DNA of 6,020 nt, from the IMG/VR virus record IMGVR_UViG_2778261349_000007, positions 1-6,020 of that record. One strand, 5' to 3'. This DNA comes from a virus (taxonomy: Duplodnaviria; Heunggongvirae; Uroviricota; Caudoviricetes). Shown here one piece after another: positions 1 through 6,020 of the stretch. The notes under the pieces were generated by a model. It saw only the letters and a list, made by a program, of their open reading frames with translations. It ran no database searches and was not told the DNA's origin. Every line of letters begins with the position of its first letter. Position 1 is the first letter of the stretch. The position numbers and the translations under genes are program-made.

Positions 1-1410
1 ATGAAACTGGCACCGAACGTAAAACGATTACCGAAAGACAAATACACCGATGCGATTATTTTTGCGGGTATTGATGCTCATTCATTCGCAGAGCATTACA
101 TCATTGCACAGGCCAAAAAAGCAGGCGATCCAGTCCCTCCCGTTTATCTGGGGCGTTATCAGTTAAGCGAACTGGATAACCTCCAGATTGTTGATGATGG
201 GCGATACAGGGCGACGGTGATACGCGCCGGAAATATTGAAGAGCCGCAGCTGTTAACCATCGCCACGAAACTGGCGATCGCCGGAGTCCAGGAGGCGCGG
301 CTACTTTCTGAAAATTTCGAATTGCTGGAGGAATGGAGCGACCAGCTTCCACGGCTTAGGGAGGCATGGGAACGCGGGGAAAGCCTGGTCATGAAAAAAA
401 TCCCCCAGCGAAAAACCACGCTACCGATGAGCGTTGGATCTACCGGATACGACACACAGCTTGATTACGTGGTAAAGGGGATTATTCCGGCATCGTCGCT
501 TTGCAGCATATACGGGGCGAGCGGTTCCTATAAATCATTCCTTGCCGGATCGTGGGCGTGTCACGTTTCCACGGGCCGCCAGTGGGGAGGCCGCAGGGTG
601 GCGCATGGCGCTGTTCTCTATGTGGTTGGTGAAGGCGGTATCGGCGTTCCGCGTCGTGTAAAAGCCTGGGAGGTTGTGCACGGTGAGCAGGTGAAAAATC
701 TGTATCTGGTAAACCGTCCCATCTTTCCGGCTGTCTCGCTTGATGTTGATGAACTGGTTATTGCTGCCAGTCAGGTGGAGAGGGAAACGGGTAAACCTGT
801 TCGCATGATTATTCTGGATACGCTGGCGCGTTGCTTTGGTGGGAATGATGAAAATGATTCCCGTGATATGGGGGCGTTTATCCGTGGTTGTGACGAACTG
901 AAACGGCGCACAGGGGCCACGGTGCTGGTGGTTCACCATTCCGGCAAGGATGAGACGAAAGGCGCGCGCGGTTCCAGTGCATTTCGTGCTTCGCTGGATG
1001 CTGAATACCGGATACGCAGAGAGGACGCAGGCAGCGAAGCGCTGGTTATCTCATGCACCAAAATGAAGGACGCGGAGGAACTCAAAGAAGCCGCATATGA
1101 CTTACGCGTGGTGGAGCTTTTTACCGACGCTGACGGGGAGTTAATCACGTCGCTGGTGGTGGTGGATAAGCCGCGCCCTCCCGTTGAACTGGAGCGCATC
1201 GAGGAGGCAGGGAACAAGACGGAGAATCACGCCGCGCTATGGCAGTGCATCAGAACACGAACAGCACACGGGGAGGCGTGCACTATCGCCCTTCTCCGCG
1301 ACGATATGAAAAAGCTGGGGTATGAGATGAAGCACTTCCGGCGCTGGCTGTACAAGCTGGAAAATGATGGCGTAATCGTTATTGATGGTGATGACGTGCG
1401 CCCGCTGTAA
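1..1410 (+). CDS. Replication initiator/helicase, RecA-like P-loop NTPase (RepA/AAA_25-like), 469 aa
   Basis: Long ORF with ATG at nt 1 and stop at 1408-1410. Walker A-like GASGSYKS (about nt 514-537), Walker B-like MIILDTLARCF (about nt 805-837), and VLVVHHSGKDE motif typical of RepA/DnaB-type replicative helicases of plasmids, phages and satellites. An N-terminal ~150 aa domain could be the origin-binding part. Iteron origin lies immediately downstream. Confidence 0.75.
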   Translation: MKLAPNVKRLPKDKYTDAIIFAGIDAHSFAEHYIIAQAKKAGDPVPPVYLGRYQLSELDNLQIVDDGRYRATVIRAGNIEEPQLLTIATKLAIAGVQEARLLSENFELLEEWSDQLPRLREAWERGESLVMKKIPQRKTTLPMSVGSTGYDTQLDYVVKGIIPASSLCSIYGASGSYKSFLAGSWACHVSTGRQWGGRRVAHGAVLYVVGEGGIGVPRRVKAWEVVHGEQVKNLYLVNRPIFPAVSLDVDELVIAASQVERETGKPVRMIILDTLARCFGGNDENDSRDMGAFIRGCDELKRRTGATVLVVHHSGKDETKGARGSSAFRASLDAEYRIRREDAGSEALVISCTKMKDAEELKEAAYDLRVVELFTDADGELITSLVVVDKPRPPVELERIEEAGNKTENHAALWQCIRTRTAHGEACTIALLRDDMKKLGYEMKHFRRWLYKLENDGVIVIDGDDVRPL

Positions 1411-1613
1411 AAAGTGGGGAGCAAAAGTGGGGAGCAGTGGGGAATTTAACAAAATTGAAACATAATTACCCACTTTCCCACCTGTATATACCCAAAAAAG
1501 TGGGGAGTAAAAAACATATTGAAAAACATAACGTTAGAATCACAAAAAAAAGAGGTGGGGAGACGGTGGGTAATTTCAAAAAGTGGGGAGCAAAAGTGGG
1601 GAGTGGTGGGGAA
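1411..1613. repeat. Iteron-type replication origin: about 9 direct and 2 inverted copies of AGTGGGGAG-like repeats flanking an AT-rich core
   Basis: Direct copies at 1413-1421, 1425-1433, 1435-1443, 1499-1507, 1553-1561, 1563-1571, 1582-1590, 1594-1602, 1605-1613 (AGTGGGGAG / GGTGGGGAG / GGTGGGTAA variants, 10-12 bp spacing within clusters). Inverted copies inside 1465-1480 (aattacccactttcccacc). AT-rich segment 1445-1550 between clusters. Sits directly 3-prime of the helicase gene. Confidence 0.7.
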
Positions 1614-1864
1614 TGAACAGAAAAACCAGAGATAAGACAGCGCCAAAATATAAAGCGTTAGACATGACAGAGCACGCTTTAAAGGTGGCAATCAGAACGA
1701 TAGACCGCCACGCGGGGGAAGGATACGCGAAAGAACATCCCGACCTGATAAGCGCATTCATGACCACAGCAGCGGCAAACTTTGCCACGCTGACAGAACG
1801 TGAGATTGCCGAAGCGGAACAGGTAACAACCATCAACGTTAAAACCGGAGAGGTGGAATCATGA
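1613..1864 (+). CDS. Hypothetical small protein (83 aa from ATG 1613; the ORF track starts at GTG 1583)
   Basis: ORF in frame from MNRKTRDK...; stop TGA 1862-1864 overlaps the ATG of the next gene (ATGA overlap at 1861-1864), suggesting translational coupling with ssb. Start overlaps the last iterons. No recognisable motifs. Confidence 0.5.
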   Translation: MNRKTRDKTAPKYKALDMTEHALKVAIRTIDRHAGEGYAKEHPDLISAFMTTAAANFATLTEREIAEAEQVTTINVKTGEVES

Positions 1865-2283
1865 CAGCACAGATAGCCGCTTACGGGCGGCTGGTGGACG
1901 ACCCGCAGGTAAAACAGACCAGCAAGGGCACACCGATGACGCTGGTTCGTATGGCGGTATCGCTGCCATGCAGCCAGGCACAGGACGGACAGGCGACGTT
2001 ATGGCTGTCCGTCATCGCATTTGGCAAGCAGGCCGACTTCCTGGCTAAACATCAAAAAGGCGACGTTGCCAGCGTATCCGGCACGATGCAGGTAAGCCAG
2101 TGGACAGGCCAGAACGGCGAAACGCGGCAGGGCTGGCAGGTTATCGCAGACAGCGTAATCAGTGCGAGAACGGCGCGACCGGGCGGCAAAAAAGGCCAGC
2201 AGGGGCAGGCTACTGACGCACTGAACAGGGCAAAACAACAGGCGGGTAACGATGATCCGTACGGGGATAACATACCGTTTTAA
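1861..2283 (+). CDS. ssb: Single-stranded DNA-binding protein (SSB-like OB-fold), 140 aa
   Basis: Translation aligns by eye to the E. coli SSB OB-fold (GRLVDDPQV..., WLSVIAFGKQADFLAKHQKGDVASVSGTMQVSQWTGQNGETRQ...) followed by a Gly/Gln-rich linker and an acidic C-terminal tip ...NDDPYGDNIPF resembling the canonical DDDIPF tail. Followed by a rho-independent terminator. Confidence 0.8.
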   Translation: MTAQIAAYGRLVDDPQVKQTSKGTPMTLVRMAVSLPCSQAQDGQATLWLSVIAFGKQADFLAKHQKGDVASVSGTMQVSQWTGQNGETRQGWQVIADSVISARTARPGGKKGQQGQATDALNRAKQQAGNDDPYGDNIPF

Positions 2284-2298
2284 GCAACGAGTGACAGA

Positions 2299-2321
2299 AG
2301 CCGGAGCAATCCGGCTTTTTT
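2299..2321 (+). terminator. Rho-independent terminator after ssb
   Basis: Stem agccgga (2299-2305), loop gcaa, stem tccggct (2310-2316), then a T run 2316-2321. Confidence 0.7.
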
Positions 2322-2370
2322 ACGGGTCCTCCTGGCGGGGTGGGCCTGAACACGGGGCGGAGGGGCGCGG
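2322..2370 (+). repeat. Degenerate cos-like repeat (cosQ-like acgggtcct retained, cosN core altered)
   Basis: acgggtcctcctggcggggtgggcctgaacacggggcggaggggcgcgg parallels the 4764-4812 cos copy (acgggtcctttccggcatatggacccgttacggggcggcgacctcgcgg), but the 12-nt GGGCGGCGACCT core is replaced by GGGCGGAGGGGCG. The preceding terminator hairpin is also near-identical to the one at 4741-4763. Confidence 0.5.
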
Positions 2371-2502
2371 AAAAAAGCGCATTTTTGTGGTTTTATCGTC
2401 ATCATCATCATGAGCGTAATTTATTGTTTTTAATTGTTTTGATGCAAAAAAGATGATGATTGTGGTTAATTTTCGTTCGACATCTTTGCAGGCAGATAAA
2501 AA

Positions 2503-2535
2503 AGCCCGATAAGGTCAGAGGAAACCTATCGGGCT
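2503..2535. other. Intergenic hairpin (9-bp perfect stem agcccgata / tatcgggct, 15-nt loop) flanked by an A run upstream and T runs downstream
   Basis: Stem arms 2503-2511 and 2527-2535. aaaaaa at 2497-2502 and tttt at 2535-2538 make it terminator-like on either strand. Could be a bidirectional terminator or the 3-prime end of a small RNA. Confidence 0.35.
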
Positions 2536-2616
2536 TTTGCATATGAGGTTTTTTTGGTGCACTGACACACATGATCGGGATAATCATTTCATAATTTGCA
2601 ACACAACTCAACATCA

Positions 2617-2644
2617 TTGCACAAAATGCAATCATGATTATAAT
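2617..2644 (+). promoter_or_regulatory. Candidate sigma70 promoter for the capsid operon (TTGCAC -35 at 2617-2622, 16-bp spacer, TATAAT -10 at 2639-2644)
   Basis: Near-consensus hexamers with 16-bp spacing, about 55 bp upstream of the first capsid-operon ATG (2701). Overlapped by palindromes (ATGATTATAATCAT 2634-2647 and the 32-bp palindrome 2642-2673). Sequence-only prediction. Confidence 0.45.
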
Positions 2645-2673
2645 CATAACTGGATGAACATCCAGTTATGATT
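2642..2673. promoter_or_regulatory. 32-bp perfect palindrome (15-bp arms AATCATAACTGGATG / CATCCAGTTATGATT, 2-bp spacer): operator or leader hairpin/terminator
   Basis: Left arm 2642-2656, right arm 2659-2673, exact reverse complements. Overlaps the candidate -10 and predicted +1. Followed by tttttt (2672-2677) and then the RBS AAGAGGA (2683-2689) of the first capsid-operon gene. Confidence 0.6.
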
Positions 2674-2700
2674 TTTTAAGTCAAAGAGGAATTTCTGACT

Positions 2701-2907
2701 ATGGCAGAAGAGAAAAAAGGCGGGGTGACCGTGTACATAAGCCCCGACATCGTGGAGGCGCTCAAGGAACGCCACCAGCAGAACGTAAAAGCAGGCATCG
2801 CAGCAGGACTTGATCCGCTGGCGATGGTTGAGCCGTCAACAGGCTGGCAGGTACGCGCCTATTTACGCGCGGCGCTGGGCATGAATCAGACGCATGGAGG
2901 TGAATAA
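2701..2907 (+). CDS. Hypothetical small protein (68 aa) immediately upstream of, and coupled to, the major capsid gene; possible scaffold-like or assembly factor
   Basis: RBS AAGAGGA at 2683-2689. Stop TAA 2905-2907 overlaps ATG 2907 of the capsid gene (TAATG). No recognisable motif; the function is inferred only from position. Confidence 0.55.
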   Translation: MAEEKKGGVTVYISPDIVEALKERHQQNVKAGIAAGLDPLAMVEPSTGWQVRAYLRAALGMNQTHGGE

Positions 2908-3962
2908 TGGCAGGCAAAGCAACGGCACTTAACACTAACCAGCTTTTCGCGTACCTGAATCGCGGGGATATTGCGGAATTTAAATTCAGTCCGCTGTTTA
3001 CCACGCTGTTTTTCCCGAACGTGGCGACATTCAACACCCAAAACATCATGCTGGACACCCTGGACATTGAAGAGGTTACGATGTCGGCGTTTTGTTCGCC
3101 TATGGTGGGTAGTCAGGTCCAGCGCGATAAAGGGTACGAAACCAGCACGATTAAACCTGGATACATGAAGCCGAAGCACGAAATCGATCCAACGAAAACC
3201 ATCATGCGCATGGCCGGAGAAGATCCGGCACAGCTTAACGACCCTACCTATCGCCGTATGCGCCTGATTACTGGCAATATGCGCCGCCAGGTAAACGCCA
3301 TAAAAGCGCGCGTGGAATGGCTGGCGGTAAATGCGGTAACGACCGGAAAAAACATCATTGAGGGCGAAGGCATAGAGCGCTATGAAATCGACTGGAAGAT
3401 ACCGGAAAAAAACATCATAGAGCAGGCCAAAGGCCGTAAATGGTCAGAGCAGGACAAAGAAACTCACGATCCAATCTATGATATTGAGCTTTATGCGGAT
3501 CAGGGCAATTGCCCCGCAAACGTCATGATTATGGGCGCTGAGGTATGGCGCACGTTACGCAGCTTTAAAAAATTCCGCGAACTGTACGATCTTTCCCGTG
3601 GTTCAGAATCCGCCGCAGAACTGGCCTGCAAAAACCTGGGCGAAGTAGTGAGCTTTAAAGGCTATCTGGGCGATATTGCCCTTATCGTCTATTCCGGCAA
3701 ATACGCCGACAGCGACGGCACAGAAAAATATTTCCTTGAGCCTGATTTGCTGGTCCTGGGTAACACCAACAATAAAGGGCTGGTGGCCTATGGTGCGATT
3801 ATGGATCAGGAAGCTGTAAGAACAGGCGCAACGCAAAACATGTACTACCCGAAAAACTGGATTGAGGACGGCGATCCGGCGATTGAGTACGTGCAGACGC
3901 ACAGCGCACCGCAGCCGGTTCCGGCAGATATTCGCAAATTTGTTACCGTCAAAATTGGTTAA
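2907..3962 (+). CDS. Major capsid protein, lambda gpE-like (HK97-fold), 351 aa
   Basis: Translation matches remembered lambda gpE along its length: FKFSPLFTTLFF (lambda FKFDPLFLRLFF), PGYMKPKHE (PGYVKPKHE), EDPAQLNDPTYRRMRLITGNMR (EDPQNLADPAYRRRRIIMQNMR), RGSES...LG.VVSFKGYLGDIALIVYSGKY, VLGNT..GL.AYG, YPKNW..GDPA, SAP. Length is close to gpE. Confidence 0.9.
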   Translation: MAGKATALNTNQLFAYLNRGDIAEFKFSPLFTTLFFPNVATFNTQNIMLDTLDIEEVTMSAFCSPMVGSQVQRDKGYETSTIKPGYMKPKHEIDPTKTIMRMAGEDPAQLNDPTYRRMRLITGNMRRQVNAIKARVEWLAVNAVTTGKNIIEGEGIERYEIDWKIPEKNIIEQAKGRKWSEQDKETHDPIYDIELYADQGNCPANVMIMGAEVWRTLRSFKKFRELYDLSRGSESAAELACKNLGEVVSFKGYLGDIALIVYSGKYADSDGTEKYFLEPDLLVLGNTNNKGLVAYGAIMDQEAVRTGATQNMYYPKNWIEDGDPAIEYVQTHSAPQPVPADIRKFVTVKIG

Positions 3963-3973
3963 CGGGGGATTCT

Positions 3974-4309
3974 ATGGACACTCCATACATTGAGTTATTT
4001 GCTGGCAGTCAGCAGGTATCAACGACGCTGGTACATTTTGCCGCTGATGCTGGCGTTATTCAGGAATTTACCCCGCTGATGCTGGCGGACAATGGTGAGT
4101 TTAAGCCGTGGGATGGTCAGGAATCTGGCAAGGCTGTTTATCTGACCTCGTACCCCGTGGACACGTCAAAGCAGAAATCAGCACAGTGTTACAAGACGGG
4201 GATATTTAATATCGCCGCCGTAAACTGGCCTGAGAGCGCCGACACTGACGCGAAAAAATGCGCCGCCTTTGCGGGTTCTGGCGTATCCGTTCAGCCGCTG
4301 GCGCGATAA
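3974..4309 (+). CDS. Head decoration protein, lambda gpD-like, 111 aa
   Basis: TPLMLADNGEFKPWDG, KTGIF...WPESAD..AKK.AAFAGSGVS align by eye to lambda gpD (TPLMLDTSSRKLVAWDG ... KSGTF...[21 protein letters not shown]). Size matches gpD. RBS GGGGGA upstream. Gene order E-then-D is reversed relative to lambda. Confidence 0.8.
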   Translation: MDTPYIELFAGSQQVSTTLVHFAADAGVIQEFTPLMLADNGEFKPWDGQESGKAVYLTSYPVDTSKQKSAQCYKTGIFNIAAVNWPESADTDAKKCAAFAGSGVSVQPLAR

Positions 4310-4321
4310 GCAGGGGGAACG

Positions 4322-4735
4322 ATGGCTACGAATGAAAGCATCATGGCGCTACCGCTGGCGAGTAAATTTAAAGCAGAAGCGCGGGCAATGGCTGACAGAG
4401 GTTTATCAACCTACGAGGCCGTATATCAACTCAACAGACTGGAAGAGCAGGACAAACCGCGCGCTGATGCGATTATGGCACTTGATGAATCTGGCGACTA
4501 TCAGCCGCTGCTACGTGCAATGGCAAACGTGCCTTGTATCGATGTTGGTACGGCTAAAAGCATCCTTAGCATGACCATAGAGCAGGAACGCCAGAAGGTT
4601 GCACCAGAGCTTACCGCAGCCTTTGAAAACTTTATGGACATGCACAGCCCGCAAGCCGTATCAGCAGGCATGGCATACGATGGCAGAAACCCGGGCGATG
4701 ACGGCGACATCGATCGCATACTGAAAACCATCTGA
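4322..4735 (+). CDS. Hypothetical protein (137 aa), last gene of the capsid operon; possible packaging/assembly accessory
   Basis: Good RBS (GGGGGA about 4312-4317). Ends 5 bp before a strong terminator. No motif recognised; no convincing by-eye match to lambda FI, FII or W. Confidence 0.65.
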   Translation: MATNESIMALPLASKFKAEARAMADRGLSTYEAVYQLNRLEEQDKPRADAIMALDESGDYQPLLRAMANVPCIDVGTAKSILSMTIEQERQKVAPELTAAFENFMDMHSPQAVSAGMAYDGRNPGDDGDIDRILKTI

Positions 4736-4740
4736 GACAG

Positions 4741-4763
4741 GCCGGAGAAATCCGGCTTTTTTT
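4741..4763 (+). terminator. Rho-independent terminator after the capsid operon
   Basis: Stem gccgga (4741-4746), loop gaaa, stem tccggc (4751-4756), T7 run 4757-4763. Near-identical to the terminator at 2299-2321. Confidence 0.7.
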
Positions 4764-4830
4764 ACGGGTCCTTTCCGGCATATGGACCCGTTACGGGGCG
4801 GCGACCTCGCGGTTTTTCGCTATTTATGAG
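4764..4830 (+). other. Lambda-type cos site, + orientation: cosQ-like (acgggtcctttccgg), cosN 12-nt core GGGCGGCGACCT (4796-4807), and the start of cosB
   Basis: gttacg-GGGCGGCGACCT-cgcggtttttcgctatttatga matches the remembered lambda cohesive-end region (GTTACG / GGGCGGCGACCT / CGCGGGTTTTCGCTATTTATGA), and ACGGGTCCTTTCCGG matches the lambda right-end cosQ region. Downstream (4831-4940) it diverges from lambda cosB, with no CCGTTCTTCTTC R3-like motif and a GGGTGGTGGTGGTGG run instead. It lies upstream of a Nu1-like gene, as in lambda. Confidence 0.75.
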
Positions 4831-4940
4831 CTTTTTCAGGGTGGTGGTGGTGGTTTTGTTGTTTGCTCTATCTTTATGAATAAAAAGGGAAAGATGCAAG
4901 CAATACACCAACCTGAAGCAGTAATTAAGTTGGTGTATTA

Positions 4941-5483
4941 ATGAAATCGCACCTGATGAACAAAAAAAACATGGCTAAAAGCTGCCGTGTAAGTGCGACA
5001 GCGTTCGACAAGTGGGGAGTAACTCCCGTTGAGCGTAAAGGCCGTGAGGCGTTTTATGATGTTGCCAGCGTGATAGACAATAGGGTTAACAATGCAATTA
5101 GCCAGCTTACAAACGGCAAAGGTGAGATTGATGATGATGAACTTTTACGAGTCAGGATCAGATTACTGACAGCACAGGCAGAGGCGCAGGAACTTAAAAA
5201 CGAGCGCGATCGCGGTGACGTGATTGATACAGAGTTTTGCATGTACGCGCTTTCAAAACTGGCGAGTCAGATTTCATCAATCATGGACAGCCTCCCGCTT
5301 ACTATGCAAAGGAACTTCCCACAGATTACCCCCGCCATGCTGGATAGGCTTAAAAGGGAAGTGGTTAAAGCCTGTAATGCCAGCGCAAAAGCTGCCGACA
5401 ACCTCCCGCAGATACTGGTTGCTTACCTGAATGAAACTACCGGAAACGTGCCGAAGAAGTTGCTACAGAAGAAAGGCGAGTAA
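4941..5483 (+). CDS. Terminase small subunit, lambda Nu1-like, 180 aa (start alternatively at ATG 4956)
   Basis: C-terminal two thirds align closely to remembered lambda Nu1 (LLTAQAEAQELKNERDRGDVIDTEFCMYALSKLASQISSIMDSLPLTMQRNFPQI vs LTRAQADAQELKNARDSAEVVETAFCTFVLSRIAGEIASILDGLPLSVQRRFPEL). The N-terminal DNA-binding region is more diverged (MNKKNMAKSCRVSATAFDKW... vs MEVNKKQLADIFGASIRTIQNW...). No clear SD upstream of either candidate start. Confidence 0.85.
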   Translation: MKSHLMNKKNMAKSCRVSATAFDKWGVTPVERKGREAFYDVASVIDNRVNNAISQLTNGKGEIDDDELLRVRIRLLTAQAEAQELKNERDRGDVIDTEFCMYALSKLASQISSIMDSLPLTMQRNFPQITPAMLDRLKREVVKACNASAKAADNLPQILVAYLNETTGNVPKKLLQKKGE

Positions 5484-5510
5484 CAGACGCGCAATTATTG
5501 AACAAAAATG

Positions 5511-5573
5511 AGAAAGGATCTGATAATGGCATTTTCTGGCTAAAATGCCTCGTGTCAGATCCTTTCTTTTTTT
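5511..5573 (+). terminator. Nested hairpin with T run downstream of the small-terminase gene (likely intrinsic terminator)
   Basis: Outer 13-bp perfect stem agaaaggatctga (5511-5523) / tcagatcctttct (5555-5567). Inner stem ggcatttt (5528-5535) / aaaatgcc (5542-5549) with loop ctggct. Followed by ttttttt (5567-5573). Confidence 0.6.
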
Positions 5574-5584
5574 AATGTTTTCAT

Positions 5585-5705
5585 TGTTAAACAATCTGTT
5601 ATAGAGAAGAAGAACGGATCTGACTTTTGCCAGAAAATTTTCATAAACAGATAAAATCCGCGAGGTCGCCGCCCCGTAACGGGCCATAATTCCAGGAAGG
5701 ACCCG
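5585..5705 (-). other. Second, complete lambda-like cos site in inverted orientation (cosQ-like, cosN, lambda-like cosB motifs on the minus strand)
   Basis: The minus strand reads cgggtccttcctggaattatggcccgttacg-GGGCGGCGACCT-cgcggattttatctgtTTATGAAAATTTTCtggcaaaagtcagatCCGTTCTTCTTCtct. cosN core is at 5663-5674 (forward aggtcgccgccc). TTTATGAAAATTTTC (forward 5633-5647) and CCGTTCTTCTTC (forward 5606-5617) match the remembered lambda cosB left-end sequence, including the R3-like element. It is convergent with the 4764-4830 cos, and the two flank the Nu1-like gene. Confidence 0.75.
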
Positions 5706-5738
5706 ACGACACCAGACTATCAGAACGATGGGGGCACA

Positions 5739-6020
5739 ATGACAGAAGCCGAACTACTGCGATTAATCCGTCGCGTTGCCGAAATCAGCCAGCAGGCTGA
5801 CGAACAGGCCACGCAGCCGGACAGCGTGACCGCCGAAAATTATGCGCGTGTGGTTGCTGAGGTGATGCGCCGTGACGGTATTGAGCTTAACGGCGTGGAT
5901 ATGCGCGACATACGGATCCGCGTTCTGGAAATGCTGGCCTACAATCGCCGCGTTGAACTGTATCGGGAGAAAGAAAAAATTACGTACCACTGGAAGAAGC
6001 CGGAGCGGTTACGGCGATAA
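5739..6020 (+). CDS. Hypothetical protein (93 aa)
   Basis: ORF with GGGGG SD-like run (5730-5734) 4 nt before ATG 5739; stop TAA at 6018-6020 (window end). No recognisable motif. Confidence 0.55.
   Translation: MTEAELLRLIRRVAEISQQADEQATQPDSVTAENYARVVAEVMRRDGIELNGVDMRDIRIRVLEMLAYNRRVELYREKEKITYHWKKPERLRR

Follow-up and report, generated by a model that had tools for sequence, protein, structure and literature searches.

The 6,020-nucleotide stretch of DNA analyzed here (positions 1 to 6,020 of IMG/VR virus record IMGVR_UViG_2778261349_000007, referred to below as the window) carries near its right end a gene for a small terminase of the lambda Nu1 family. This satellite gene, terS (4941-5483, + strand), encodes 180 residues and was assigned from the open reading frame (ORF) list, Pfam, PHROG, BLASTP and hhalign. 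It is positioned directly downstream of a cosQ-cosN-cosB array, as a Nu1-type terS is in lambda, and it lies between two convergent lambda-type cos sites, cos1 upstream on the + strand and cos2 downstream on the - strand. No gene for a large terminase (TerL) was found among the ORFs of the window or across the whole annotated island to which it belongs.

When compared with 5,426 complete Escherichia coli genomes, the window had some match in 2,199 and was at least 80% covered in 389. In strain 2015C-3905 it corresponds to the right half of an island of ~11 kb sited between roxA and phoQ. Annotation together with Pfam and PHROG gives the order of this island as integrase, small helix-turn-helix (HTH) regulator, Icd-like protein, RepA-type helicase and SSB, followed by the capsid-side genes: a lambda-E-like major capsid protein, a lambda-D-like decoration protein, a 137-residue protein, the “terminase small subunit” and a 93-residue protein. 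We took the EcCICFT073 family of phage-inducible chromosomal islands (PICIs) to comprise elements of ~10-15 kb with a unidirectional int-alpA-pri/rep-ori layout, few capsid genes, one or more cos sites and no full morphogenesis module. The present island has the size (~11 kb), the int, alpA-like and pri-rep genes, the iteron-bearing ori, the capsid genes and the cos sites of this family.

EcCICFT073 itself occupies the same chromosomal site in strain CFT073 and runs parallel, gene for gene, to the island of our locus L001. It has the same exact pair of lambda cosN sequences, one on the + strand upstream and one on the - strand downstream of the gene in the slot between the 137-residue and 93-residue ORFs, and this arrangement corresponds to cos1 and cos2 of the published PICIs (PMC6092414; PMC6739421). 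The main contrast is the slot gene, which encodes 144 residues in CFT073 and the 180-residue Nu1-family protein in the window. The CFT073 protein matches RppC (6HLK) with an E value of 5e-31, and its position, length and RppC match identify it, as judged from sequence, as RppA (c1503; PMC6739421). The PICI whose right half makes up the window belongs to the EcCICFT073 family and has terS in the rppA slot between convergent cos1 and cos2.

By megablast against the same complete genomes, the terS cassette had any match in 797 and a near full-length match in 479, O157:H7 and ATCC 25922 included; the rppA cassette had 291 and 53, respectively. The terS cassette is the commoner of the two in complete E. 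coli genomes, where the count covers rppA alone among the rpp variants. In E. coli the PICIs that carry the cassette differ in integrase and in site; the sites are roxA/phoQ, cspD/clpS, tRNA-Ile, the vicinity of narP and the interior of prophage portal genes.

The protein is a clear member of the Nu1 family. Its sole Pfam hit is Phage_Nu1 (PF07471; E 1.8e-23, 83.4 bits against a cut-off of 30), and it matches PHROG 57, “terminase small subunit”, over residues 1-172 (E 8e-52). BLASTP aligned it with lambda Nu1 (E 8e-33; overall identity 34-38%) and hhalign with N15 gp1 (probability 100%, E 4e-47, 163 columns), and the alignment with these two proteins reaches both C-termini. N15 gp1, at 45% identity overall, was the closest protein in our phage collection, in which no phage protein was more than 60% identical to the satellite TerS. 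The start at 4941 is supported by M1, H4 and L5, which are invariant across the satellite family. Two other assignments were tried and rejected. Membership of the Rpp family gave a BLASTP E value of 1.2 and an hhalign probability of 0.1%, as compared with 5e-31 for the control comparison of RppA with RppC (6HLK). Membership of the TerS family of Staphylococcus aureus pathogenicity islands (SaPIs; Terminase_2, pac type) was ruled out, as Phage_Nu1 was the only Pfam hit and the element has cos sites; the satellite TerS may nevertheless act like SaPI TerS while standing outside that family.

A preliminary description of this DNA had taken the C-terminal two thirds of the protein to be lambda-like and the N-terminal region to be simply diverged. 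Domain-wise alignment with lambda Nu1 gave a different picture at both ends: 41% identity with three indels over residues 6-46, 5% over the linker (47-66), 50% over the central residues 67-130 and 31% over residues 131-166, followed by an extra 12-residue tail. Of the proposed pattern, only the conserved center held. Residues 6-46 (4956-5078) align with the Nu1 DNA-binding domain and form, from the alignment and the N-terminal search described below, a putative winged helix-turn-helix domain; the family profile matches the N-terminal fragment of lambda TerS, 6hn7_B (E 0.007). Residues 67-125 (5139-5315) make up a central helical region that, by homology to Nu1, would be the self-association region. 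Residues 126-180 (5316-5480), which end in the basic tail NVPKKLLQKKGE, are the candidate TerL-docking module; in Nu1 the region that binds gpA/TerL is the extreme C-terminus (~40 residues; PMC9026076), here one of the stretches with the lowest conservation.

Rather than being an orphan divergence, residues 6-46 are 61% identical to N15 gp1, as compared with 41% to lambda, and they share the three indels of N15 relative to lambda. These indels and an AFDKWGV-type recognition region place the domain in the N15 class. When the first 66 residues were used as query, matches were confined to N15 and to N15-class TerS of Pseudomonas and Alteromonas phages, and TerS of the lambda, 21 and phi80 types were absent even at E <= 1. 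The last 61 residues instead found E. coli lambdoid phages, with PhiR5_1 best (54%) and then the PhiR12 series (48%). The identity matrix for the window allele agreed: the DNA-binding domain was 61% identical to N15 and 12-41% to the other phage classes, the central region was 46-59% identical to all phage classes, and the C-terminal module was 51% identical to PhiR5_1, 44% to PhiR12 and 29-34% to lambda, phi80, N15 and the 21-like class. The lambda-like C-terminus of the preliminary description thus gave way to one whose nearest phage class is PhiR5_1/PhiR12 (51-54% and 44-49%). These comparisons indicate that the satellite TerS is a mosaic that joins an N15-class DNA-binding domain to a C-terminal module nearest the PhiR5_1/PhiR12 class.

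E. coli genomes, together with metagenome contigs, supplied a comparative set of alleles. Up to codon 120 the E. coli alleles were ~88-100% identical to one another in nucleotide sequence, and over codons 121-160 they were 67-72% identical; the breakpoint near codon 120 falls at a conserved SLPL..R.FP motif. On account of this drop, the last ~60 residues are an exchangeable module. The ratio of nonsynonymous to synonymous substitution rates (dN/dS) among E. coli alleles was 0.03-0.12 in the DNA-binding domain, 0.14-0.22 in the center and 0.2-0.4 in the C-terminus. Since it is below 1 in each region, every part of TerS appears to be functional. Against two Enterobacter/Citrobacter-type alleles (L007 and L011) the E. 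coli alleles were 73-80% identical in the DNA-binding domain, 62-67% in the central region and 28-42% in the C-terminal region.

The modules fall into classes that are also seen among phages. That of the Superficieibacter allele (L020) is 66-71% identical to lambda, phi80 and N15, and identity to PhiR5_1 is 51-54% for the modules of the window, ATCC 25922 and GABEEC132. In phage TerL the first ~50 residues hold the TerS-binding domain (PMC9026076), and the TerL N-termini of phages group as the TerS C-terminal modules do: lambda, phi80 and N15; PhiR5_1 and PhiR12; and the 21-like phages. Matching classes of this kind are what a docking pair would be expected to produce. The TerS of phage PhiR12_2 (L027:441-950) was found to combine a DNA-binding domain only 9-22% identical to the lambda, 21 and N15 classes with a C-terminal module of the PhiR5_1 class (61%), and these two modules are therefore reassorted among phage small terminases as they are among the satellite alleles. 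The basic tail (5446-5480, residues 169-180) varies among E. coli alleles (NVPKKLLQKKGE, SAPEKLLQNKGE or NVPDKLQPNKDK), and no counterpart is present in phage TerS or in the Enterobacter, Citrobacter, Kosakonia and Superficieibacter satellite alleles.

The nearest relatives of the protein are E. coli proteins with 76-94% identity, followed by Enterobacter and Citrobacter proteins of 168-170 residues with 56-61%. The Enterobacter and Citrobacter islands have the same build (AAA_25 replication protein, E-like capsid protein, D-like protein, AlpA-like HTH protein, Nu1-like gene and defence cargo) and are followed by a phage capsid gene, which is truncated, and by lambda-like tail genes, a layout that equals the “helper-embedded PICI” configuration (PMC10111431). 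In L007 (6559-7916) and L011 (6540-8254) defence-like cargo lies directly downstream of terS on the opposite strand, FRG plus DUF3892 in one and GmrSD_N plus HEPN_RiboL-PSP in the other. A search for related loci among one-genome-per-species contigs returned six, two of them island-type and four true phages. The Kosakonia and Superficieibacter copies are of the island type, 51-55% identical and without TerL; the four marine relatives (L021-L024) are true phages with an adjoining TerL gene.

The DNA that this protein would read was examined in the same way. The cos1 site opens with a cosQ-like sequence (ACGGGTCCTTTCCGG, 4764-4778, + strand), which is in register with those of lambda, phage 4 and EcCICFT073 cos1, and continues with a 12-nt cosN that, by sequence match and alignment, is identical to that of lambda (GGGCGGCGACCT, 4796-4807, + strand). 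We aligned the segment from cosN to the terS ATG from ten satellite loci whose proteins are 51-100% identical. The distance between the two was 145-150 bp in all ten (the window ATG is at 4941). A GCTATTTATGAG block at +24 (4819-4830, + strand), where lambda has GCTATTTATGAA, was invariant in 10/10 loci. Box A of cosB1 (4839-4864, + strand; +44 to +69 from bp 1 of cosN) consists of a GGGTGGTGGTGGTGG run and TTTTGTTGTTT. It is R3-like, of the N15 class, and is the likely primary TerS site; its core, GGTGGTG..TTGTT at about +45 to +68 (GGGTGGTGGTGGTGGTTTTGTTGTTT in the window), was kept in the ten loci, and the chance expectation for GGTGGTGGTGGTGG is 0.04 occurrences. Box B (CAATACACCAACC, 4901-4913) is a candidate second TerS site: CAATACACC(A/C)AC starts at +106 in 8/8 loci tested, where lambda has its inverted R2. 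Both boxes are kept even where cosN differs, as in Kosakonia (GGGCGGCAGACT) and Superficieibacter (GGGCGTCGACCT). The reverse complement of box B found its best match on box A in seven of eight loci (9-10 of 13 bases).

Two features of this cosB had been described beforehand, and both were confirmed: the GGGTGGTGGTGGTGG run is present at 4839-4853, and the lambda R3 word CCGTTCTTCTTC is absent from cos1. In cos2 this word is present. Phage DNA resembles the cos1 region only over cosQ, cosN and ~35 bp more, and the resemblance ends at about 4841, just before the GGT run. The site is, however, unlikely to be wholly new. The single R3 of N15 has been mapped at bp 48-60 (PMC9026076); its sequence is GAGGTTGTTGTTT, and box A lies at the same position. 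Furthermore, a G/T-only tract at about +45 to +65 was found in five N15-class phage lineages, namely N15, MD8, Hali, a Glaciecola prophage and a Thalassotalea prophage (L022, L024). Because of this shared position and tract, the “non-lambda cosB” of cos1 is best read as a variant of the N15-class R3 that goes with a reading head of that class, and not as a wholly new specificity. EcCICFT073 cos1 carries CACCACCACCAC at +54 to +65, which is the reverse complement of the GGT repeat GGTGGTGGTGG of the window. Between the boxes of the window allele no match of 8/9 or better to an integration host factor (IHF) site was found; lambda, phi80 and cos2 of the window have one at about +74 to +79. An attempt to derive the helper class from the cosQ-cosN spacer, which in window cos1 equals that of PhiR5_1, was dropped, as EcCICFT073 shares this spacer although lambda, phi80 and phage 4 package it.

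Box B holds the left arm of an 11-nt inverted repeat (4902-4912 / 4929-4939) that is perfect and, as had been noted beforehand, abuts the start codon, ending 1 nt before the ATG. The right arm, identified by an inverted-repeat search (4929-4939, + strand), is a direct copy of box B that is R1-like in placement and spans the Shine-Dalgarno region of terS. The repeat can be described as box B plus a direct copy beside the ATG, and its layout resembles the inverted R2/R1 pair of lambda. Among the alleles, only those of the window type (93-100% identity) have a perfect right-hand copy; at 77-89% identity the copy is degenerate, and other genera are without it. ORF and Shine-Dalgarno inspection also revealed a 15-codon upstream ORF (MQAIHQPEAVIKLVY, 4894-4941, + strand) with a good Shine-Dalgarno sequence (AAGGGA) and a stop codon that overlaps the terS start (TAATG). 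Folding gave -14.5 kcal/mol for positions -45 to +3 and -20.1 kcal/mol (z = -4.0) for 4880-4960, and the hairpin spans the ribosome-binding region. The upstream ORF and the -14.5 kcal/mol hairpin co-occur, and only in the window, L001, L016 and L017; they are missing from the other allele groups.

One possibility is that the repeat is chiefly an RNA device and no DNA-binding site at all, in which the hairpin hides the terS ribosome-binding site, translation of the upstream ORF opens it, and the dose of TerS is set in this way. The strength of the hairpin, the TAATG overlap behind a good Shine-Dalgarno sequence, and the fact that the upstream ORF always accompanies the perfect repeat would fit such a device. 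Nonetheless we think it rather improbable as the whole explanation, as both elements are missing already at 77-89% identity and in distant genera while box B is kept at +106 throughout. Because the left arm is family-wide at this fixed position, the repeat reads as a protein-binding site rather than a conserved RNA hairpin. It is plausible that hairpin and upstream ORF are a translational-coupling device of the window-type lineage and not a property of the family; within window-type alleles the RNA and DNA readings are compatible. The proposal that the repeat occludes the translation start may hold in so far as a strong hairpin covers the ribosome-binding region, though only in window-type alleles, and its left arm is a family-wide DNA box.

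The second site, cos2, is of a different kind. On the - strand it comprises a second lambda-type cosN (5663-5674), convergent with cos1 and laid out as in EcCICFT073, a cosQ-like sequence (5692-5706; alignment and inverted-arm search) and a full phage-type R3 / I1-like / R2 / R1 array (5505-5624), with CAGATCC at +53 (direct), +113 (inverted) and +153 (direct) and an IHF-like site (8/9 match) at +74. The CAGATCC word also occurs in the cos of prophage SerU-LTIIb. Together, cos1 and cos2 form 76-nt inverted arms that are 80% complementary in the window. In CFT073, cos2 has three copies of a ATGTCCGG/CCGGACAT word, although the published papers recognise no phage-type cosB at the EcCICFT073 cos sites. 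Across alleles cos2 varies independently of terS (L014:3675-3750, L015:3676-3688 and L016:3680-3900, compared with window 5484-5706): ATCC 25922 has the 21-like R word CATGTCGG, LH09-a and 22AR0322 are without cos2, and in GABEEC132 what is left is cosQ and 8 nt from the start of cosN, joined directly to the terS stop codon. As only 8 nt of cosN remain there, the end point of the deletion lies inside cosN.

Natural combinations of island and prophage bear on the question of specificity. Two E. coli strains, LH09-a and 22AR0322, carry the island within a prophage portal gene. The TerS of the hosting prophages is 98-100% (179/181) identical to lambda Nu1, and their cosB carries the lambda R3/R2/R1 words. 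Since these prophages have a lambda-type TerS and cosB, the cosB of helper and satellite differ, and the embedded pairs provide direct evidence, at the level of sequence, for two unrelated cosB specificities within a single helper-satellite pair. The C-terminal modules of the embedded alleles (residues 126-166) are 41-44% identical to lambda, and that of the window allele 29-32%; over the last 21 aligned residues the counts are 10/21 and 5/21. The more lambda-like C-terminus of the embedded alleles fits a match to the helper, which is suggestive but weak. Four more alleles were sampled, one in a lambda-type prophage (L030) and three chromosomal, and no helper of another class was found among them.

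With somewhat more confidence than doubt, we propose that the gene encodes an autonomous satellite TerS that reads its own cosB and recruits the large terminase of a helper; binding, direct docking and independence of helper TerS are what we infer from the data above. When a lambdoid helper is active, the satellite TerS would bind its private cosB through the N15-class winged-helix domain, at box A (+44 to +69) and probably at box B (+106), with a third copy beside the ATG as a possible site in window-type alleles. The C-terminal module would dock the helper TerL (a gpA homolog), which would cut or nick the lambda-type cosN at 4796-4807 and package island concatemers rightward into helper capsids. 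Helper TerS would be unable to read cosB1, so that packaging from cos1 would be specific for the satellite, and the convergent cos2 with its phage-type cosB would offer a second route that depends on helper TerS.

We favor this proposal because the gene is located in the rpp slot between cos1 and cos2, where RppA sets packaging specificity via the cosB of cos1 (PMC6739421), because it keeps the whole Nu1 C-terminal region, unlike Rpp, and because the element is without a TerL of its own. The DNA-binding domain, the most conserved region, is co-conserved with boxes A and B and with the cosN-ATG distance, even where cosN differs, and the C-terminal module recombines, is under purifying selection and tracks the phage classes; both observations favor it as well. 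Family membership, mosaic build, selection on all parts and helpers with a different cosB are likewise observed. The specificity swap of the preliminary description, in which the element's TerS brings a helper motor to the element's own cos, is thereby still the best-supported explanation, with domain and boxes co-conserved across four genera, and needs correction in that the domain and box A are of the N15 class.

Several observations weigh against it. The C-terminal module is only ~50% identical to the nearest phage class, and 41-44% identical to the lambda-type helper TerS in the embedded pairs. The central region, at ~50% to phage TerS, could permit mixed oligomers with helper TerS. A strong intrinsic-terminator-like hairpin with a T run (4739-4765, + strand; 8-bp stem with five G-C pairs and a T tail) lies upstream of terS, directly between orf137 and the cosQ of cos1, and the stretch from this hairpin to the terS ATG showed no sigma-70-like promoter. 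The notion that box B is an inverted copy of box A proved suggestive and not significant, as composition-preserving shuffles often matched as well. The structural model is a further weakness: AlphaFold2 with 27 close homologs gave a poor result (predicted local distance difference test score, pLDDT, 56; predicted template modelling score, pTM, 0.27), with a low-confidence secondary structure of α1-α2-β-β-α3, and a single-sequence PDB search with the satellite TerS returned nothing meaningful. Finally, a 2018 study reports that inducing the resident prophages of strains IHE3034 and 18098 did not lead to transfer of their TerS-encoding islands, for which there is no known helper (PMC6092414).

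The mixed-oligomer point leads to the most serious competitor, that the protein is an Rpp-like adaptor: it would read the island cosB and work only in a mixed oligomer with helper TerS, which would make the contact to TerL, and by sequestering helper TerS it would block helper packaging. The slot and the cos1/cos2 layout are those of rppA, EcCICFT073 strictly requires helper TerS (PMC6092414), the self-association region is 46-59% identical to phage TerS, and the C-terminal module is no more than 41-44% identical to the TerS of the prophages that host two of the islands. An adaptor of this kind would hardly need a full-length Nu1 C-terminus that is under purifying selection, recombines and tracks phage classes, an end which Rpp does without (PMC9026076). 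Moreover, the N15-class domain is without 11 α3 residues (lambda K47-E57), which include the dimer contacts 47 and 51 of the DNA-binding domain that Rpp mimics, and neither sequence nor profile comparison showed similarity to Rpp. We therefore regard an Rpp-like mode of action as unlikely. Less likely again, and in our judgment quite improbable, is that the protein serves mainly in interference, competing for helper TerL or poisoning helper TerS while the island is packaged through cos2 by the helper terminase. PICIs show interference as a general trait, Rpp acts in both capacities (PMC6739421), and cos2 does have a complete R3/I1/R2/R1 array. On the other hand, several alleles with terS and cos1 in place (L014, L015, L030) have no cos2 or a truncated one, and conservation within the cassette is highest in the DNA-binding domain and the cosB1 boxes, which would be unexpected if recognition of cos1 were irrelevant. 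The absence of an adjoining TerL gene and a merely generic “terminase small subunit” annotation might also be taken as signs of a decaying remnant of a defective lambdoid prophage, without present function. This we reject as having next to no likelihood, given the typical PICI architecture (int, alpA-like gene, pri-rep, iteron ori, ~11 kb), the presence of the cassette in 797 of the 5,426 complete E. coli genomes and in other genera, the intact frame and the dN/dS values of 0.03-0.4.

The autonomous satellite TerS can be extended to a more speculative model, which we offer tentatively and hold to be possible rather than probable. Here TerS would be a modular “helper-switching” adaptor that combines a fixed N15-class DNA-binding domain and private cosB with TerL-docking modules that stem from different lambdoid terminase classes and are swapped near codon 120, so that a single satellite lineage could use several helper motors without any helper TerS. 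The swapped cos2 would be a backup dependent on helper TerS, and the whole cassette an alternative to Rpp in the same slot.

Comparison with characterized systems helps to place the protein. RppA, RppB and RppC (PMC6739421; PDB 6HLK, 6HN7) share with it the slot between convergent cos1 and cos2, the flanking orf137 and orf93, the island type, a presumed satellite-specific reading of cosB at cos1, and a triplet repeat ~45-65 bp from cosN (CACCACCACCAC in EcCICFT073, GGTGGTGGTGG here). They differ in having 139-154 residues without the C-terminal TerL-binding region of TerS (PMC9026076), whereas the 180-residue satellite TerS keeps the central and C-terminal regions; their DNA-binding domain is lambda-like and not of the N15 class; and they need helper TerS, of which the satellite TerS is predicted to be independent. 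N15 gp1 is a natural protein with a different DNA-binding domain plus a lambda-like C-terminus. It resembles the satellite TerS in overall identity (45%), in its DNA-binding domain (61%), in the three indels and in a G/T-only R3-type tract at an equal distance from cosN. However, its C-terminus is 78-83% lambda-like, as compared with ~30% in the satellite TerS, and N15 has its own TerL; the satellite site adds GGT repeats before the GTT repeats and a box at +106, and the satellite protein has the extra basic tail. Lambda, with Nu1 and an R3-I1-R2-R1 array, shares the Pfam family, the cosQ-cosN-cosB-terS order, a similar cosN-ATG distance and possibly a layout of the R3/R2/R1 type, with box A at about +45, box B inverted at +106 and the direct copy at +133. 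It differs in protein identity (34-38%) and in its R words, and the satellite locus has no good IHF consensus between the boxes and no overlapping TerL gene.

SaPI TerS follows the same predicted strategy of a DNA-recognition subunit of its own and a borrowed helper TerL (cited in PMC6739421 and PMC6092414), but it belongs to an unrelated family with headful pac packaging, and SaPIs add Ppi against helper TerS, of which no equivalent was identified here. In the chimeric terminases of lambda and 21 (PMC9026076) cosB specificity follows the N-terminal half and TerL specificity the C-terminal part, and the crossovers fall in the middle, which is conserved; those are laboratory hybrids, whereas the satellite mosaics are natural, with their breakpoint near codon 120. 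That satellites may have their own small terminase is known already from the SaPIs and from the statement in 2018 that some Gram-negative PICIs, the islands of IHE3034 and 18098, “encode TerS”, for which no sequence analysis or mechanism was given (PMC6092414). These two islands very likely carry the same kind of cassette, a match that we made from the published description only. In the searchable literature we found no analysis of a cos-type terS cassette, of the pairing of an N15-class head with cosB boxes or of the exchangeable C-terminus, and neither the equivalence of the cassette to the rpp slot nor its higher frequency than the rppA cassette.

A number of further features were seen in and around the cassette. 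A third, degenerate cos-like site was found at 2299-2380, right after ssb, where the arrangement of hairpin and cosQ seen at cos1 recurs (about 2299-2335): a terminator hairpin (2299-2321) and a cosQ-like ACGGGTCCTCCTGG are followed by a decayed cosN (GGGGCGGAGGGGCGCGG) and AAAAAAGCGCATTTTTGTG. This site is kept in L001, L014 and L016 and was not found in EcCICFT073. We compared the cosQ-cosN spacer of cos1 in ATCC 25922 (L016:2958-2990) and O157:H7 strain 2159 (L017:2958-2990) with window positions 4764-4795 and 5675-5706. The spacer in these two alleles is of the cos2 type, TTCCTGGAATTATGGCCC, in place of TTTCCGGCATATGGACCC in the window, and gene conversion between cos1 and cos2, the two inverted copies, may account for this exchange. 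A 74-residue ORF on the minus strand (5463-5687) crosses cos2, and its SerU-LTIIb counterpart is annotated as “NU1-like protein”; this annotation is probably an artefact, with the similarity following conserved cosB DNA. In the origin region after the replication gene (1408-1614) there are six AAAAGTGGGGAG-type iterons, in two 37-nt blocks 169 bp apart with an A/T-rich stretch between them. Upstream of cos1, orf137 (4322-4735) is a member of PHROG 1999 (unknown function) and has a weak match (E 1.4e-8) to PHROG 53, head-maturation-protease/scaffold proteins, at their C-terminal end (positions 494-567 of 583); an AlpA-like HTH protein of 127 residues takes its position in other alleles. NCBIfam gave no match for any ORF of the window.

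Rpp is the only worked-out packaging hijack of the Gram-negative cos PICIs, it depends on helper TerS, and the terS cassette shares its slot. If the autonomous cos-type satellite TerS proposed here is real, it would be the cos counterpart of the SaPI TerS strategy, and its allelic C-terminal modules would be a natural system for mapping the code by which TerS and TerL dock. It would also bear on two questions left open in PMC6739421, the origin of Rpp and the reason why PICIs keep two cos sites. The cassette is relevant to the engineering of PICI-based delivery vehicles and to predicting which prophages are able to mobilise these islands together with what they carry, for instance the defence genes beside terS in the Enterobacter/Citrobacter-type contigs.

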